From Bdellovibrionota bacterium (GTDB lineage Bacteria > Bdellovibrionota_C > UBA2361 > JBIKWN01): DNA of 64,000 nucleotides. Location: the NCBI GenBank assembly GCA_044356295.1, contig JBIKWN010000006.1:7134-71133 (forward strand). The letters are read 5' to 3'. Shown piece after piece: positions 3,433 to 17,621 of the stretch (position 1 is the stretch's first letter; each line of letters starts with the position of its first letter). The position numbers and the translations under genes were made by a program. The notes below the pieces were generated by a model. It was not told the DNA's origin, ran no database searches, and saw only the letters and a list, made by a program, of their open reading frames with translations.

Positions 3433-6165
3433 TTAATGTGCTTGACCCCAATTCTGCCCGACACCTACTTCAGCTTTTAACGGCACAAGAAATGTCACAA
3501 CATGCTCCATTTCTTTTTGAATCCTTACTTTCATAAGTTCCGCATGTTCTTTTGGTGCTTCGAAAACGAGCTCATCATGAACTTGAGAAATCATTGTTAA
3601 TGGAAGATTTTCTTCTCGGATAGCTTTATCAATAGAAATCATTGCAAGCTTTACTATATCTGCAGCAGTACCTTGAATTGGGGCATTCACAGCAATTCGA
3701 TTTTGAAACCCTTTGTCTCGTTCAGAAAATTCTGAAGGTTGTATAAATCTTTTACGCCCAAAAACAGTAGTAACACACCCAAGGGTAGCGGCATCGGATT
3801 CAAGTTTAGCGAACAACTTCTTTACACCAGGATACTGATTGAAATAATTTTGGATATACATCTCTGCTTCACGCATGGAAACTGAGAGCTCTTTCGATAA
3901 ACGAAATGCACCCATCCCATAAATAATTCCAAAATTAAGTGTTTTTCCGACCCGTCGTTGTTCAGTGGTAACATCAAAAAGCGGAGGAACTGCAAAGATT
4001 TCTCGGGCTGTTTTCGTATGAATATCAATACCCTGATGAAAAGCATCGATTAAATTTTTATCTTCACTCATATGAGCCAGCACTCTAAGCTCAATCTGTG
4101 AATAGTCAGCAGATAAGATGACAGAGCCAGGTTCTGCGATAAACGCCTGTCTAATCTTTGCGCCTTCTGTGGTTTGAATCGGAATATTTTGAAGGTTTGG
4201 ATCAGATGAAGAAAGACGTCCTGTGGCAGTTACGGTTTGATTAAACTTTGAATGAATTCGATCTGTTTTTTTATTAATAGATGTTGGCAGTGAATCAACA
4301 TAGGTGCTTTTTAATTTAAAAAGGGTTCTATGTCTTAAGATCTCTTTAGGAACTTCATGACGTTCCGCTAAAATTTCAAGGACACTAGCATCAGTTGAAA
4401 ATCCAGTTTTTGTCTTCTTTACACCTTTGGTAGATATCCCAAGTTTTGTAAATAAAACTTCGCCGAGCTGTTTTGGAGAATTAAAATTAAACTCTTCTCC
4501 GACCATTGCAATAATTCGCTCGCGAACTAATTCTAATTCAGCAGTTATTTCTTCACTCATCCCTGCGAGGAATTTTTCATCAACTTTTACTCCGGCTAAC
4601 TCCATTCTAGAAAGGACTGGCACTAGCGGCATTTCGATTGTTTTGAAAACATTTGTAAGCTCTTTTTCTTCCAGTAGCGGGAAAAGCACTTTATAAAGAT
4701 CATATGCAACGAGGGCATCCTCAGCAGAATACTCTGCTGCCGCTTCTATAGGGACAGCTTGGAATCCTTCCTCTACATTTTGCAGAGATTCATATTCAAT
4801 AACACCACGTGAAAGGTACTCAGCAGCAAGCGCTGTCATACCAAATCCATTTTTATCTGGATTTAAAAGATACGCTGCAACCATTGTGCAAAAAAGATTA
4901 CCTTCTACTTGTACACCCTGAGCTGCGAGAATACTTAGATCAAATTTAAGATTTTGTCCTATCTTCAAAGAAGTTTTATCGGAAAATACAGGGTTTATCT
5001 CTTTTTTAAAAAGTTCCCACGGAATCTGTTCTGATACTTTTTCACCATTGGTATGTGAAAAAGGAATGTAGAAGTTAGAATCACCTCCAAATGAGAAAGA
5101 CATACCAACAACGTCTGCACAGTGCGGATCAAGAGAAGTTGTTTCAATGTCGAACGCAAATTCCTTCTGTGAAGCTATTGAAGTAAGAAAAGAATTTAAA
5201 TCATTTTTATAGATTGTTTTATATAAAGATGAGCTTATCGTTGATGCAGGCTTTTCATATTTCAGAGAAAGCTCTTTTAAAAGAGAGGTAAACTCAAGTT
5301 TCGAAAAAAGAGTTTCTACTGCATCTTTGTCAGGACTTTTTCTTGCACAAAAAATTAAAAGCTCTTCATCTGATTTATCTCGAAGATCAATTGGAGCGTC
5401 GGTAAGTATCTCAACTAGTTTTTTACAGAGGCGCAGAGTTTCTTTATTTTCTGAAATATTCTCAGCAAGTTTCTCTCTACTTCGAATTGTTTTATCAACT
5501 TTAATCTGATCTACTGCAGCAATAATTGACTCGATCGAGCCGTACTGTTGAACAAGTTGAGTCGCAGTTTTAGGACCCACTCCGCTCAGTCCTGGTATAT
5601 TATCTGACGTGTCACCCATAAGGGAAAGGACATCGACAACTTGGGAAGGAGGCACACCAAACTTTTCAATAACGCCTTCCGCTCCAAACTTTTTATCCTT
5701 CATCGTATCCCAGATTGATACGTTATCATTAACTAACTGACAGATATCTTTATCACCAGTAATTATACAGACAGGATGTCCAAGCTCAGAAAATCTTTTT
5801 GAAAGTGTTCCAATAATATCATCAGCTTCAAATCCAGGAAGCTCAAGCACTGGCAATCCTAATACGGATGACAGTTCACGAAAAACTGGCATCTGTGGAA
5901 CCAATTCAGGGGGACACTCTGCTCGGTTTGCTTTATAAGCTTCATAAAGATCATTTCGAAATGTTTTTTTCCCTGCATCGAAAATCATAACGACATGTAC
6001 AGAATCTGAAAGCTTTAAAAGCTTTCCAAGCATTCGGGTAAATCCGTAAAGGGCGTTAGTCGGAAAGCCTTCCTTTGTAGATAAAGGAGCTACGGCATAA
6101 AAGGCTCTAAAAATGTAGCCACTGCCGTCAATGAGGTAAATCTTTTCTTTTTGGTTCTCGGTCAT
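3433..6165 (-). CDS. polA: DNA polymerase I
   Basis: 910 aa. 5'-3' exonuclease N-domain (LIDGSGYIFRAFYA), a 3'-5' exo domain and the polymerase motifs (DYSQIELR, QVHDELVFE). Confidence 0.95.
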   Translation of the reverse strand: MTENQKEKIYLIDGSGYIFRAFYAVAPLSTKEGFPTNALYGFTRMLGKLLKLSDSVHVVMIFDAGKKTFRNDLYEAYKANRAECPPELVPQMPVFRELSSVLGLPVLELPGFEADDIIGTLSKRFSELGHPVCIITGDKDICQLVNDNVSIWDTMKDKKFGAEGVIEKFGVPPSQVVDVLSLMGDTSDNIPGLSGVGPKTATQLVQQYGSIESIIAAVDQIKVDKTIRSREKLAENISENKETLRLCKKLVEILTDAPIDLRDKSDEELLIFCARKSPDKDAVETLFSKLEFTSLLKELSLKYEKPASTISSSLYKTIYKNDLNSFLTSIASQKEFAFDIETTSLDPHCADVVGMSFSFGGDSNFYIPFSHTNGEKVSEQIPWELFKKEINPVFSDKTSLKIGQNLKFDLSILAAQGVQVEGNLFCTMVAAYLLNPDKNGFGMTALAAEYLSRGVIEYESLQNVEEGFQAVPIEAAAEYSAEDALVAYDLYKVLFPLLEEKELTNVFKTIEMPLVPVLSRMELAGVKVDEKFLAGMSEEITAELELVRERIIAMVGEEFNFNSPKQLGEVLFTKLGISTKGVKKTKTGFSTDASVLEILAERHEVPKEILRHRTLFKLKSTYVDSLPTSINKKTDRIHSKFNQTVTATGRLSSSDPNLQNIPIQTTEGAKIRQAFIAEPGSVILSADYSQIELRVLAHMSEDKNLIDAFHQGIDIHTKTAREIFAVPPLFDVTTEQRRVGKTLNFGIIYGMGAFRLSKELSVSMREAEMYIQNYFNQYPGVKKLFAKLESDAATLGCVTTVFGRKRFIQPSEFSERDKGFQNRIAVNAPIQGTAADIVKLAMISIDKAIREENLPLTMISQVHDELVFEAPKEHAELMKVRIQKEMEHVVTFLVPLKAEVGVGQNWGQAH

Positions 6166-13022: not shown

Positions 13023-14870
13023 TTACGTTAATAATCGCAACGCCAATCCAGGTGATTGATTAGCTTGAGCGAGCACTGATGTTGCAACTTGCTGTGAAAT
13101 TTTCAATCGCGTTGCCTCTGCAACTTCGCTACTGACATCACTATCCATAATTCTAGAATGAGCCTCTTTGTAGTTGATACTCGTCGACTGTACAACATTT
13201 ATGACTGCTGCCGCGCGCGACATTGTTGCTCCAACTCGTCCTAGTGTTTGTGAGATGCTTTCAATTAACGTACGAGAATTATCCAAAGACTGTCTAGCTC
13301 CTTGTTGAGTGAGAATATAATTTTTTGCAAGGTAGTTAGTTTGGGCCCCGTTTCCATAATTAAGATCAAGACGTCCACCTGTCAGCGAAGCCACTATTAC
13401 ATCTTTGACCCCATCACCAGTAAAGTCTGCAATTAAATTTGCATCCGATAATACCCCAGAGCTGTAGGCCCAAGTTTGAGAAATCTTAAATGTTCCATCG
13501 CCGTTACCTAAAATAATTCCTGCACCTGAAAAGCCTGTAATTAAGTAATCAGCAAAACCGTCATTATTAATATCCTGGGACGTCATGTTAGCTAATTGAC
13601 CTATGCCAGAAAAATTTATAGTTGTGTTTGCTCTAAAAGTTCCATCGCCGTTTCCTCGTAGGAAATTTACAGTTCCACCTCCTGGGCCAATTACAACAAT
13701 GTCTAAATTGCCATCCCTATCAAAATCTTGGGCGACTGATGCACCAGATACACTATTAACAAAATAAGTGCTCATGGCTCGAAGTGTCCCGTTGGAATTC
13801 GCAAGAATAACTCCGATTTGATTGCTGGAATTATCAGAAAGTTGGATGTCATCTTTTCCATCGCCGTTAAAGTCACCAACTGAAAGGGCGACACCATTGA
13901 AGGATGTGGCATAGCTCACTGCTGCCCTAAATGTACCATTTCCATTTCCACTGAGAACACTAATTGCGTTACCACCTGATGCAACGAGGTCAGCTATTCC
14001 ATCGCCGTTTATATCTCCAGTAGAAACTGACGTAACCGTAAATCCTTGCGCGTAAGTAACTGCCGAGGCAAAAGTATCATTGCCATTATTCAAAGCAATT
14101 CGAATATTTGTCGTATGATTGTTAACCCAATCCAGTTTACCATCACCATTTACATCAATGAGGCTTGCACCAGAGGGACCAGGCGCACCATTAGCGAATA
14201 TCGTCACACCACTACTAAAAGATCCATCACCGTTTGATAAGAATATCTGACCGTAGATACTTAATAGATCAGCTCTTCCGTCGCGGTTGTAATCGATGGC
14301 GTTAAAACCTCGCTGATTCGCCATTGCTTGTGTACTTGTTCCTGTAAATGTTCCATCCCCTGCAGCTCCGTTGATTCCAGAACCTTGTAAATATAAAAGT
14401 GAATTATCAAGACCACTTCCGAATTGGAATCTTACCCCTTGGGAATCTACGGAACTTAATAATTTTATGCCATTAAATGATGTGATCGAAACTATTCTGT
14501 TAAATTCTTCTGTAAGCCTATCAGACTCTTGCTGCATTGATTTTCGCTGCGACAATGAAAAAGATCCGTTTGCTGCTTGCTCAGCTAATTCAGCTTGGCG
14601 TTGTGCAATTTCTGACAACCCTCCAAGAGTCCCCTGAACAATATTGAGCATACTAACGCCATCGTTAATATTACGTAGCCCCTGCGAAAAAATTCTTGTT
14701 GAAGCATTAAGCTCTAACGCGATAGCGAGTCCTGCTGCATCATCGGCTGCTTTATTAATTCTCTGCCCAGACGCAAGTCGTTCAGAGATCGAAGCAAGCT
14801 TATTCGAGCTTTGCTCAAGTCCCCGCTGCGCGGTTAAAGAACTGATATTACTGCCTAATGTTATAGCCAA
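13023..14870 (-). CDS. Flagellin-family protein with a central FG-GAP beta-propeller insertion
   Basis: N-terminus (M)AITLGSNISSLTAQRGLEQSSNKLASISERLASGQRINKAADDAAGLAIA is the flagellin N-domain. C-terminus AHSRIMDSDVSSEVAEATRLKISQQVATSVLAQANQSPGLALRLL is the flagellin C-domain. Between them lie about seven DxNGDGxxD / GNGDGTF FG-GAP-type repeats. The start codon is TTG (revcomp of caa at 14868-14870). Confidence 0.85.
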   Translation of the reverse strand: MAITLGSNISSLTAQRGLEQSSNKLASISERLASGQRINKAADDAAGLAIALELNASTRIFSQGLRNINDGVSMLNIVQGTLGGLSEIAQRQAELAEQAANGSFSLSQRKSMQQESDRLTEEFNRIVSITSFNGIKLLSSVDSQGVRFQFGSGLDNSLLYLQGSGINGAAGDGTFTGTSTQAMANQRGFNAIDYNRDGRADLLSIYGQIFLSNGDGSFSSGVTIFANGAPGPSGASLIDVNGDGKLDWVNNHTTNIRIALNNGNDTFASAVTYAQGFTVTSVSTGDINGDGIADLVASGGNAISVLSGNGNGTFRAAVSYATSFNGVALSVGDFNGDGKDDIQLSDNSSNQIGVILANSNGTLRAMSTYFVNSVSGASVAQDFDRDGNLDIVVIGPGGGTVNFLRGNGDGTFRANTTINFSGIGQLANMTSQDINNDGFADYLITGFSGAGIILGNGDGTFKISQTWAYSSGVLSDANLIADFTGDGVKDVIVASLTGGRLDLNYGNGAQTNYLAKNYILTQQGARQSLDNSRTLIESISQTLGRVGATMSRAAAVINVVQSTSINYKEAHSRIMDSDVSSEVAEATRLKISQQVATSVLAQANQSPGLALRLLT

Positions 14871-14925: not shown

Positions 14926-15128
14926 TTCTCTTTGTTTTTTTAGGAATAATTGAAAGGAAAATGTGCTAGTGTTTCGGTAAGTTATGAGGGATGCTTTAAA
15001 ATTGAAGATATTATTTATGTTTTTTGCAATTTGCGGCTAACAAAAATTCGTACGACCACGGCCATAAAGTTAAGGGACGTCGAAACTCTTTTTGGTACAA
15101 GATAACTTTCAATCTGATTTAAGCTAAT

Positions 15129-15170
15129 GAAGTACTATATAATCCAAGTTACCTTGTACCCATTATTTCT
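15129..15170. repeat. Direct repeat, left copy, flanking the 15.2-17.0 kb islet
   Basis: gaagtactatataatccaagttaccttgtacccattatttct. Compare gaaggcactatatattccgagttacctagtcccaattatttct at 16996-17038, about 88% identical. Confidence 0.6.
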
Positions 15171-15194
15171 TTTTTTAGAAAAATTGATTTGACC

Positions 15195-15605
15195 ATGCAT
15201 AAATCTTTTCCTATCAAGTCTTTTTTGATACTTGGAGTTATTTCTCTATGCATATTTATTAATAATATGGCTGACAGCTGCTTTGTTAAACTGAAATCCG
15301 CCGATAGTAAATTATCAGATGAGCTTAGTTATGAATTATTTGAATTATGGATGTCACCTCAATATGAAAATGTATCTGCAGAGAATCTTGTGAGAGAATT
15401 TCTTTCGAAATATAGCACCCCACAAGAAATTGCAGATCTGAATCCGGTATATAAATTATATCAAGAGAATATTGCTCTTGGTATCAATGATGGTGATTGG
15501 GATATACTTGCGCGGCGCAGTAAACTTAATGAACTTAATGGACGGGAGTTAATAAACGCTGCAGTTAAGAAATTTCTGTTACAAAATGAGATAGCTTGTA
15601 AATAG
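15195..15605 (+). CDS. Small exported/membrane-anchored hypothetical protein
   Basis: ATG at 15195. The track ORF begins at a TTG at 15189. Hydrophobic N-terminus SFLILGVISLCIFI. No recognisable domain. Confidence 0.5.
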   Translation: MHKSFPIKSFLILGVISLCIFINNMADSCFVKLKSADSKLSDELSYELFELWMSPQYENVSAENLVREFLSKYSTPQEIADLNPVYKLYQENIALGINDGDWDILARRSKLNELNGRELINAAVKKFLLQNEIACK

Positions 15606-15753
15606 AGTTCGTCCTTAATATGGCTATCTAAGATTTTTATTAGTGAAATTTTTGGTACGAGGTAACTTTTGATTCGATCTTAAACCACTGTAACTGTTAT
15701 ACAATAAGAGTTACAGTGTACCAGTTACATTTCTCCGCGTTATCTTGTACTAG

Positions 15754-16266
15754 TTATTTTTTGAGTGAATTATGCAAATAAGAAGAAAAAGCTCTTTCAA
15801 TAACTTCTGTTTCATCAATATTTTTTTCAATTGCACGACGTTTAATTTCGGCAAGTGTTGCAGGCTTTAATCTCCAATTAGTTCTGACTCGTCGTTCATT
15901 GACAGGAATAGATCGTTTGTCTGGTAACTCAATGTTCGCCCACCGCTTTAGATCTTTATAGGGCAATCCAGCGAGATCCGGACCAACATCTTTATTTTTT
16001 TTAATACATTCTAACACCAGGCTTAGTTTTTCTGGAATCTTATCCCAGTTTAGAAAAGATCGAGGGAATCGAAGCATTGCCGCTGGTAGAACCTCTAACA
16101 CTCTGGGTTCAATTTCTGTACCTATTTTGAGTGCTTCTAGAATATCGACTTTAATTGTAGGTAATGGTTTTACATCTTCAACTCCCAATAATCCTTTACC
16201 AACAAAAAATCCAAATATCCTTTCGGTTTTTTCGTCCCACTGATTGATATAATTATTTTTAGCCAT
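15754..16266 (-). CDS. Hypothetical protein; downstream gene of a two-gene cassette
   Basis: 170 aa, 9 bp after the upstream gene. The C-terminal 40 aa (RRVRTNWRLKPATLAEIKRRAIEKNIDETEVIERAFSSYLH) look like a ribbon-helix-helix segment and also contain an R-x6-H motif. These are weak motif-level hints only. Confidence 0.55.
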   Translation of the reverse strand: MAKNNYINQWDEKTERIFGFFVGKGLLGVEDVKPLPTIKVDILEALKIGTEIEPRVLEVLPAAMLRFPRSFLNWDKIPEKLSLVLECIKKNKDVGPDLAGLPYKDLKRWANIELPDKRSIPVNERRVRTNWRLKPATLAEIKRRAIEKNIDETEVIERAFSSYLHNSLKK

Positions 16267-16275
16267 ACTTTTAAT

Positions 16276-16782
16276 CTATAGCTTTATAGTCTTTGTAATT
16301 GTGAAATAGGTAATGTCCCCACCATTGCTTATTATCTTGCTCGCTAAAACATCACCAAAAAGTTTTAAAGCATCACTAACGAGATGTTTATTTTTTTCTT
16401 TAGCCTTTATTGCTTTACTGGTAATCGCAGAAATAGGATCTAAGTGACTCACTTTTACCCAGGTTGAATCGTAATACTGAATAAAATTAGAATCCTTTGG
16501 AATCCAGATCTCTGTACTGAGTTCATCAAAAGCTAAGCCATTTGATTTCAATACATCACGAAAAACTTGAGTCTCACCCCATTTTCCCTTTAGCAATGCA
16601 TCAACATCTTTGGTATATGCCAACCGAATCTTCGAGCTGACTTCTTCATTCATCAGCAAGCTCATCTGTCCTAGGACATTAATCTCTATCTTATTATCCG
16701 ACATTACAGAATCACCTAAATCTTCACGACGTAATCTGAGTGCTTCTTCAAGATCTTCTATGACTTTATTTATTAATTTCAT
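16276..16782 (-). CDS. Hypothetical protein; upstream gene of the two-gene cassette
   Basis: 168 aa. LGQMSL...(17 aa)...KDVDALL is faintly reminiscent of the hG[GS]...DxD nucleotidyltransferase-fold signature. This is unconfirmed. Confidence 0.55.
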   Translation of the reverse strand: MKLINKVIEDLEEALRLRREDLGDSVMSDNKIEINVLGQMSLLMNEEVSSKIRLAYTKDVDALLKGKWGETQVFRDVLKSNGLAFDELSTEIWIPKDSNFIQYYDSTWVKVSHLDPISAITSKAIKAKEKNKHLVSDALKLFGDVLASKIISNGGDITYFTITKTIKL

Positions 16783-16995
16783 CTTTCCTAAGCACTATTT
16801 TACATTAAAAAATATATGACGTACAGACATTATTAAGTATTTGATATTACTCATTATTATGTTGTAATTTATATATTTCTAGAGGATTAGTTGCTAGTTC
16901 GAAAATCAAAATAGATGACAACATTGTTACTGTAATCATAAAGCAAGCGAAGCTACCCTTTTCCAGAAATTTTCTTCAATATTATTTAGCCTACT

Positions 16996-17038
16996 GAAGG
17001 CACTATATATTCCGAGTTACCTAGTCCCAATTATTTCT
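16996..17038. repeat. Direct repeat, right copy, flanking the islet
   Basis: See the left copy at 15129-15170. Confidence 0.6.
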
Positions 17039-17135: not shown

Positions 17136-17621
17136 CTAATCCCTAAAATTCGTAAACTGCAATTCAATATCCTTAACTTCAGAGCGCAAAAACTGAATCA
17201 CTGCTTGCAGATCGTCCCTCTTCTTACCCATTATCCGTAATTGATTGCCCTGAATCTGAGAATTCACCTTCACTTTTTGACCTTTAATAAGTTTATTAAC
17301 TTTTTTCAGATCGTCATCACATAATCCCTGTTTGATCAATACTTCTTGTTTAATTGTATCGCCTCCGGCAGGGAATGGATCTTTAAATTCTACAGACTTC
17401 AAACTGACTTTCCGTTTTGCAAGTTTTTCCATCAACATCGTCTGCACTGCACTTAAACGCATCTGGTCATCAGCGTGGACATTAATCTGTTCTTCAACAA
17501 GTTCAACAGTAACGTTGGTTCCCTTAAAATCATACCGAGTTGCAATTTCTCGCTGCACCTGATCAACCGCATTACGAACTTCTTGCATATCAACTTCTGA
17601 AACGACATCAAAGGAAGGCAT
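17136..17621 (-). CDS. yajQ: YajQ-family (UPF0234) nucleotide-binding protein
   Basis: MPSFDVVSEVDMQEVRNAVDQVQREIATRYDFKG is the characteristic YajQ N-terminus. The start is set at the MPSF methionine; the track ORF begins 17 codons earlier. Confidence 0.8.
   Translation of the reverse strand: MPSFDVVSEVDMQEVRNAVDQVQREIATRYDFKGTNVTVELVEEQINVHADDQMRLSAVQTMLMEKLAKRKVSLKSVEFKDPFPAGGDTIKQEVLIKQGLCDDDLKKVNKLIKGQKVKVNSQIQGNQLRIMGKKRDDLQAVIQFLRSEVKDIELQFTNFRD

Follow-up and report, generated by a model that had tools for sequence, protein, structure and literature searches.

A horizontally mobile gene pair of Bdellovibrionota and relatives, encoding a predicted nucleotidyltransferase and a partner with a predicted ribbon-helix-helix domain, as a candidate toxin–antitoxin module

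Nucleotidyltransferases (NTases) that act as toxins (MenT, AbiEii) or as antitoxins (MntA) are recent additions to toxin–antitoxin (TA) and abortive-infection biology. The MenT and AbiEii toxins stop translation by adding nucleotides to the 3′ ends of tRNAs. The defining motif of MenT has been described, and MenA antitoxins make use of auto-phosphorylation at a Ser or Thr that precedes the catalytic Asp by two residues (PMC7450476, PMC11375011). In MenT1 this motif reads T39-x-D41, and in MenT3 it reads S78-x-D80 (PMC11375011). Other NTases of the DUF1814 superfamily are usually encoded upstream of their regulators (PMC11375011), and AbiEi binds inverted repeats (PMC7319586).

The locus described here lies in a 64,000-nt stretch of a Bdellovibrionota contig (JBIKWN010000006.1), which we refer to as the window. 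Two ORFs of similar size, located 9 bp apart on the same strand, had been read from the letters alone as a possible TA or defence cassette, and this layout was recovered at 15754-16782 on the minus strand. Gene A (16276..16782, minus strand, 168 aa) encodes a protein that we read as a divergent polymerase-beta-type NTase related to DUF6036 and propose as the toxin or enzymatic effector. Gene B (15754..16266, minus strand, 170 aa) encodes a basic two-domain partner, which is the proposed antitoxin and autorepressor. The stop codon of A and the start codon of B are separated by a 9-nt spacer (16267..16275, minus strand) within a bicistronic arrangement, and translation of the two genes is probably coupled. 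A putative Shine-Dalgarno sequence, AGGAAAG (16783..16789, minus strand), abuts the ATG of A. To judge by sequence comparison, A and B are real genes and not chance ORFs, because conserved relatives exist for both of them (30 from a word-indexed search and 229 cluster representatives for A, and 206 from a profile search for B).

The neighbours of the pair in the window are genes for YajQ, an HI0933-like flavoprotein, flagellin and a hybrid histidine kinase. When YajQ relatives were used to look for an empty site of the pair, the closest one among the metagenome contigs was 57% identical. A third ORF (ORF138, 15189-15605) was considered as a further component of the module and rejected, as no homologue of it was found near any other A-B pair. 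Its match to the PADLOC model of SspE (E 0.0011) was taken as chance, as it spanned 60 residues whereas the model has 800 positions.

The word-indexed search gave E-values down to 1e-75 for the relatives of A, and the 229 cluster representatives were retrieved at E<=1e-3 by a profile search of 1.84 billion proteins. Every relative of A, as well as every relative of B, was unannotated or labelled ‘hypothetical’. No direct match to A itself was found among the Pfam (E<=1), NCBIfam, PADLOC and PHROG models. Four of 103 relatives of A matched Pfam DUF6036 (PF19502), whose Pfam label is ‘Nucleotidyltransferase of unknown function’, at E<=0.1, and the other 99 and the window protein had no match. 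One of these four, P0293, scored 31.9 bits against DUF6036, which is above the gathering threshold of 23.6 bits, and the A profile found it with an E-value of 2.9e-14. An hhalign comparison of the A family with P0293 gave a probability of 98.8% and E 8.5e-17 over 154 columns. Thus, the protein A of the window stays below the DUF6036 gathering threshold, yet has profile-level homology to a true member of that family. At the level of sequence profiles, DUF6036 is the only curated family reached by the A family; in the literature searched, no mention of it was found. Neither A nor any of the 103 relatives matched AbiEii/DUF1814 (PF08843) at E<=0.1, and the AbiE models of PADLOC likewise had no match among them. 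PDB sequence searches with the queries A1, A2, A3, A5 and P0293 returned nothing informative beyond weak matches to NikA and CopG.

A faint NTase-like pattern, LGQMS...KDVDALL, had been noticed in A before any search was made, and both peptides were located (aa 37-41 and aa 58-64, respectively). The conservation of this pattern was counted in 103 relatives that are 20-56% identical to A. Motif I, G38-Q39-M-S41 (16660..16671, minus strand), is at the position of hG[GS], at the b1/a2 junction of the predicted model; G38 and Q39 were each present in 102/103 relatives, and at position 41, S occurred in 49 of them, A in 43 and G in 8. Motif II, T57-K-D59-V-D61 (16600..16614, minus strand), lies on strand b2 and comprises the presumed metal-binding DxD, preceded by a Thr that corresponds in position to the phospho-acceptor of MenT; T57, D59 and D61 were found in 102, 101 and 102 of the 103 relatives. 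The predicted model has an NTase fold with an a-b-a-b-a-b core, in which hG[GS] falls between b1 and a2 and [DE]h[DE]h is part of strand b2, and its best structural matches include MenT1, MenT4 and TglT/MenT3. The NTase suspicion was thereby strengthened by the fold of the model, by residues G38, D59 and D61 kept in at least 101/103 relatives, and by the link to DUF6036. As far as alignment can tell, the pattern is a true active-site signature, because the residues fixed across the 103 relatives occupy the catalytic positions of NTases.

Other positions of A are conserved to different degrees. In the Lys-rich C-terminal helix, S122-K123-A-I-K-A-K-E-K130-N131 (16390..16419, minus strand), S122 was present in 97/103, K123 in 102/103, and K130 and N131 in 98/103 relatives each. 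K123 is a candidate for the catalytic Lys of a motif III-like element, which is plausible from its conservation, and it would be equivalent to K137/K189 of MenT. Residue D86, which precedes b3 in the predicted model, was D in 96 and E in 6 of the 103 relatives, and the b3 position (D105), where a third NTase carboxylate would be expected, was E in 27, D in 21 and another residue in 55. Downstream of K123, there was no invariant Asp that would correspond to motif IV of MenT (position 131 is N in 98/103, and D156 was found in 64/99). Based on the alignments and the model, we suggest that A is a small, catalytically competent NTase of a clade that joins DUF6036.

Protein B consists of two domains. 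The AF2 model (pLDDT 81.7) showed a well-predicted helical domain at aa ~10-110, a low-confidence linker at aa 111-130 and two C-terminal helices. For the N-terminal helical domain (15937..16239, minus strand), neither the PDB nor any of the profile libraries yielded a relative. Although it is an orphan, it is strongly conserved, with the motifs EPR55VLEVLPAA, FPRSF, GPDLAG and W109-A110, and R55 was found in 116/116 relatives. A similarity of residues 69-131 to a ubiquitin variant (E 0.33) was taken as chance, since the model is helical there. The inter-domain linker (aa 111-127; 15886..15936, minus strand) has the consensus LPDKR[ST]xP; its pLDDT was 51-67, yet D116 and R118 were each present in 116/116 relatives. 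This part of B may contact A.

The C-terminal domain of B (aa 128-170; 15757..15885, minus strand) is a predicted DNA-binding ribbon-helix-helix (RHH) domain. In the model, it had a b-a-a fold matching solved RHH proteins. In searches against sequence models, the B of the window matched the Arc-like model of PHROG alone (E 0.22). The homologue P0133 matched Pfam RHH_10 at 29.6 bits (cutoff 27), another one, P0054, matched a NikA-like model at 25 bits, below the cutoff of 27, and, in the PDB, the B family profile had matches to NikA and CopG with E-values of 0.36-0.88. Two alternatives had been offered for the C-terminus of B in the sequence-only reading, namely an RHH domain (RRVRTNW...ERAF, located at aa 125-160) and a HEPN-like R-x6-H motif (RAFSSYLH, at aa 158-165). 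The first is supported by the fold match and by the RHH_10 match of the homologue, and the second was given up, as this motif is not conserved: R158 occurs in 24/116 relatives, and none of the other sequences has H165. No HEPN protein was among the structure matches, and no conserved Rx4-6H was found at any position of the 116 relatives. Apart from this HEPN alternative, each part of the cassette reading that could be checked held.

To describe the association of the two genes, each locus was counted once, whether the search was seeded from A or from B. In 31/31 independent loci, B was located directly 3′ of A on the same strand, and the two ORFs were separated in the other loci by a few nucleotides or overlapped. 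In a scan of one genome per species, 25 loci were found, nearly all of them in Bdellovibrionota, including Halobacteriovorax marinus, Bacteriovoracaceae and Oligoflexia MAGs. The order of A followed by B on the same strand was observed in all 25 of these loci, as well as in metagenomic contigs found by exact-protein look-up, and loci seeded from B also had A upstream. It had been proposed that the cassette reading be dropped if the pair were not co-conserved across genomes or if both proteins fell into ordinary families; the opposite of the former was found in the 31 loci, and the profile searches placed neither A nor B in a housekeeping family. The protein P0294 was considered as an A-B fusion of the Rosetta-stone type and rejected, since a frameshift forms the junction and A has its true C-terminus in another frame; it was kept solely to document that the genes are adjacent and that A is disrupted. 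The bona fide DUF6036 gene of P0293 is overlapped by a downstream gene of 162 aa with the same layout of a helical domain and RHH, which aligned to the B profile collinearly but weakly (E 0.0036).

The genomic surroundings of the pair vary. The GC content of the loci ranged from 0.32 to 0.71, including one genome with 71% GC. Flanking genes were not common to the loci, except for an AAA_14/DUF4143 ATPase in a few of them. One copy of the pair (L003-L006) has a MobA/MobL relaxase on one side and a tyrosine integrase on the other, with TraG/TraD and a SMODS gene near. When three genes per side were scanned in 27 loci, a relaxase was found in 1 and integrases in 2. The 147 flanking proteins comprised a few linked to defence or TA systems, namely Fic/SoFic (2), AbiEi (1) and PDC-S01 (5), and were mostly housekeeping proteins. 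These observations show that the A-B pair is horizontally mobile. It is a small adjacent co-directional pair, strictly co-conserved and placed in variable contexts, as in the generic genomic description of type II TA systems (Makarova et al. 2009). In PADLOC-DB v2.0.0, A and B of the window had no match, and 103 A and 116 B relatives gave isolated matches only, at E>0.001. No relatives of A or B were found among PLSDB plasmids, and the A profile, the only one used there, found no relatives in IMG/VR viral contigs.

A palindrome, TAGTG-N3-6-CACTA, was present upstream of A in 10/27 loci, and a TAGCG variant in 4 more. It was first spotted by eye and then tested without presupposing the motif: all GC-containing 5-mer palindromes with a gap of 3-6 nt and <=1 mismatch were counted, and TAGTG was the most frequent. 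The restriction to GC-containing palindromes was needed, as the unfiltered search was swamped by AT-rich patterns. The maximum for 5-mer palindromes in any of 200 shuffled or 200 random-window control sets was 5. The sites are mostly located 35-47 nt before the start of A, and L009 has a perfect copy, TAGTGCTATGCACTA. In the window, the candidate operator region (16817..16862, minus strand, 5′ of A) contains a degenerate copy with 3 mismatches, the 16-nt imperfect palindrome TAATGTCTGTACGTCA (16817-16832), and two direct copies of TAATAATG located 24 nt apart (16828-16835 and 16852-16859). A half-site, ATAGTGC, overlaps a TAAAAT box upstream of A, and a weak sigma-70-like match was found at 16881..16853. 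The upstream palindrome fits a candidate operator for autoregulation by the predicted RHH domain.

The pair of the window had also been described as isolated inside a repeat-bounded islet, and copies of a palindromic element of ~80 nt were indeed found on both sides of A-B (copy 1 at 15094..15160, copy 2 at 15653-15722 and a half copy at 16990-17038). This palindrome has an arm motif that occurs 4 times in the window, each time at the islet, versus 0.04 expected. The GC content of 15089-17038 is 0.332, the lowest among window stretches of equal length (the window mean is 0.386). These repeats were confined to contigs of the same species and were found at none of the other A-B loci. They are local intergenic palindromes and belong to the context, outside the module, because they are absent from all other A-B loci. 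The possibility that they delimit a mobile cassette or represent attC sites of an integron was rejected for the same reasons and because there is no integrase nearby. The integron core is GTTRRRY, and the palindrome arms, AGTTACC, do not fit it. A hairpin with 15-nt arms (inverted repeat I7, 15686..15718, 93% complementary) lies 3′ of the stop codon of B, between convergent genes, and forms the core of the predicted fold. It is possibly a terminator, although it has no T-run and a terminator scan made no call there. Rfam and tRNA scans of the islet gave no matches.

Based on the above results, we suggest that A-B is an autonomous, autoregulated TA-type module with A as a MenT/AbiEii-like toxin and B as an antitoxin and repressor, and we put the probability of this reading at about one half. 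In such a module, A would be the NTase effector, with the MenT/AbiEii-like signature [ST]-x-D-x-D and a downstream Lys. The C-terminal RHH domain of B would dimerise and bind the palindromic operator 5′ of A, so that the operon is repressed, and the N-terminal domain of B or the linker with D116 and R118 would bind A and neutralise it. A could be inhibited by being sequestered or, following the example of MenA-MenT, by being induced to auto-phosphorylate Thr57 beside the catalytic Asp. We infer the toxic partner, its substrate and the contact between A and B, and the module could serve element maintenance or phage defence.

By analogy with characterised systems, several features would speak for A as the toxin: proven NTase toxins are among its nearest structural relatives, it carries the MenT-type [ST]-x-D and an invariant Lys, and B appears to have a DNA-binding domain of the antitoxin type. 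In addition, A was disrupted in two loci (by a frameshift that merges A with B in L035 and by a frameshift together with G38D in L041) and B was intact in all 31, which is an asymmetry expected if A is the harmful partner; the 2-versus-0 count is small, and metagenome assembly errors could explain it. Charge points the other way. The median pI is 5.35 (acidic) for the A family and 10.0 for the B family, with 9.6 for the N-terminal domain of B, which is the reverse of the usual combination of a basic toxin and an acidic antitoxin and counts against A as the toxin. An acidic A would also be unexpected for a tRNA-binding enzyme, though A has a local Lys-rich helix.

The first of the other explanations reverses the roles. 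The charge pattern resembles that of an MntA-like neutraliser with a nucleic-acid-binding effector and, by this analogy, it may be A that neutralises; the order of the genes, with the NTase first as in mntA-hepT, likewise argues against A as the toxin, although an upstream position is also usual for other DUF1814-superfamily NTases (PMC11375011). In a type VII module of this kind, the acidic A would be an antitoxin that nucleotidylates or otherwise neutralises B, and the orphan N-terminal domain of the very basic B would be a toxic effector directed at nucleic acids. The conservation of this domain agrees with such a role, the invariant R55 and D116/R118 could form an active site or be the target of a modification, and fusions of HEPN with RHH have been described (Makarova et al. 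2009, PMC2701414). The partner in MntA-HepT is a HEPN protein, whereas B has neither Rx4-6H nor a HEPN structural match and carries an RHH domain, and the fold neighbours of A are NTases of the MenT/ANT type and not MntA. We consider the reversal of roles unlikely.

The same low probability is given to an explanation outside TA biology, according to which A is a small-molecule NTase for resistance or detoxification, similar to ANT(2'')-Ia or LnuA, with B as the RHH transcription regulator or sensor dedicated to it. Resistance enzymes do not normally occur in a strict, translationally coupled 1:1 pair with a partner that has a large conserved domain outside its DNA-binding part, and the A family is absent from plasmids, where resistance NTases abound. 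An hhalign comparison of the A family with an approximate AadB sequence aligned the DxD only, with a non-significant probability of 0.25%, and a broken A next to a retained B is not predicted by this explanation. Finally, it is very improbable that the pair is a housekeeping accessory of a mobile element (relaxosome or partition), with B as a NikA/TraY-type RHH protein on a DNA site of the element and A as an accessory enzyme, given the relaxase at 1/27 scanned loci, the integrases at 2, the mostly ordinary chromosomal neighbours and the absence of conjugation or mobilisation genes beside the pair in the window. It should be noted that the RHH fold alone cannot tell NikA from antitoxins.

If the reading of A-B as a TA-type module with A as the toxin is correct, the pair would be a third arrangement of NTase-based TA systems, in which a minimal DUF6036-related NTase comes first and is followed by a partner composed of an unknown domain and RHH. 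This would give a first functional context to the DUF6036 clade and to ~200 ‘hypothetical’ gene pairs of predatory bacteria. The invariant Thr beside the catalytic Asp would make the recently proposed model of antitoxin-induced auto-phosphorylation testable beyond DUF1814. We also offer, tentatively and with the odds leaning against it, the more specific proposal that the pair represents an undescribed NTase-based TA or defence family, largely of Bdellovibrionota and relatives, in which an antitoxin of a new fold, namely the orphan N-terminal domain of B with R55, D116 and R118, controls a minimal 168-aa NTase via auto-phosphorylation of Thr57 or through nucleotidylation of the antitoxin itself. 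On this proposal, the inverted charge, with an acidic enzyme and a basic partner, would indicate a mechanism or a substrate unlike that of the tRNA-extending MenT. The architecture would not surprise a specialist in TA systems; the orphan domain of the partner, the DUF6036 context and the inverted charge make the pair a tractable experimental target. A regulated small-molecule NTase would be of minor interest.

The described systems close to A-B include MenAT and AbiE, which are type IV/VII-like TA and abortive-infection systems. They share with A the Pol-beta NTase fold, G-x-x-[SA], [ST]-x-D-x-D and a downstream Lys, for which the conserved K123 is the candidate in A, and A carries the DUF1814/MenT motif as G38-Q-x-[SA]41 and T57-x-D59-x-D61. 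As in the pair, their genes form a bicistronic operon, the NTase is accompanied by a DNA-binding protein, and the operator, which in A-B is a candidate, is palindromic. The differences are in size, charge, gene order and partner: A has 168 aa versus ~195-300 for MenT/AbiEii and is acidic; the NTase gene comes first in all 31 loci, whereas the toxin of MenAT and AbiE is encoded downstream of the antitoxin; and B is unrelated to MenA1, COG5340/AbiEi and COG4861, with a C-terminal RHH domain in contrast to their N-terminal wHTH. The lack of a model match and the reversed gene order place A-B outside the DUF1814/MenAT group.

MntA-HepT resembles A-B in the order of the genes, the similar-sized basic partner, the acidic NTase and the mobility of a two-gene module. 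Nevertheless, A-B is not a member of MNT-HEPN, because B is not a HEPN domain protein. The reverse-order type II TA systems HicAB, BrnTA and MqsRA are likewise compact, probably translationally coupled pairs in which the effector gene comes first and the product of the second gene combines a neutralising domain at its N-terminus with a C-terminal RHH or HTH domain. Their toxins are RNases, whereas A is a predicted NTase, and the N-terminal domain of B has no known sequence or fold relation to theirs. ANT(2'')-Ia (AadB) and LnuA show 12% identity to A and no profile-level relation, and they do not depend on a partner gene; the A family, for its part, was not found in the plasmid collection. For DUF6036, no function has been described; its member P0293 resembles A also in being accompanied by an overlapping gene for a partner composed of a helical domain and RHH.

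Within the window, ORF138 and the A–B pair (the nucleotidyltransferase-like gene A and the gene for its RHH-domain partner B) are bracketed by copies of a palindromic element of about 80 nt, with the sequence GGTACRAGRTAACTT ... AAGTTACnnnGTACC. The element is complete at window positions 15094–15160 and 15653–15722, whereas only a half copy is present at 16990–17038. A search of the 64-kb window showed that it is confined to one 2-kb stretch, and outside the window it occurred only in contigs of the same species. It possibly acts as a terminator or belongs to the REP-like elements. ORF138 (15189–15605, forward strand) is convergent with B and encodes a 138-aa orphan protein, the N-terminus of which resembles a signal peptide/lipobox. 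Family searches with this protein gave no match, and a homologue was found in none of the other fetched loci. The source organism is poorly sampled, since relatives of its YajQ, encoded by an ordinary neighbour gene of the pair (17139–17621, reverse strand), did not exceed 57% identity among the best 80 matches in the metagenome collection.

The reverse-strand gene at 13023–14870 of the window encodes a 615-aa flagellin, in which Flagellin_N and Flagellin_C are located at the ends and FG-GAP/VCBS-type repeats form the central variable region. Such an insert is unusual for a flagellin.

Among the 31 independent loci, two carry a disrupted A together with an intact B. In one of them (L035:2921–3892), A is fused to B by a frameshift, and in the other (L041:3583–4020), a frameshift after helix 1 is accompanied by a change of the motif I residue G38 to D. 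These disruptions might be genuine, with a toxic gene decaying, or they might be artefacts of metagenome assembly.

In the locus L004 (1–10749), the gene order is as follows: a SMODS nucleotide cyclase, TraG/TraD coupling proteins, a MobA/MobL relaxase, a 157-aa ORF, A, B and a tyrosine integrase, after which heavy-metal efflux genes are found. Here, the pair looks like part of an integrative mobilisable element; such a putative element was also recorded in L003, L005 and L006.

In several Bdellovibrionota loci, the pair is adjoined by an AAA_14/DUF4143 ATPase (L007:6752–7876; L010:6749–7870; L014:1952–3118, which is the same as L036:457–1623; and two genes in L008, 6539–7705 and 9870–11084). 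In three loci, the ATPase gene lies on the same strand directly upstream of the pair. The three genes may be associated with one another in one subclade, or the ATPase gene and the pair may share an insertion hotspot. The ATPase corresponds to the PADLOC candidate single-gene system PDC-S01.

Furthermore, the A–B locus in L036 has two flanking genes that are both linked to phage–host conflict. One (5098–5925) encodes a metallo-beta-lactamase fold and matches the Anti-Pycsar Apyc1 family, and the other (1–169) encodes a Schlafen/AlbA_2 ATPase.
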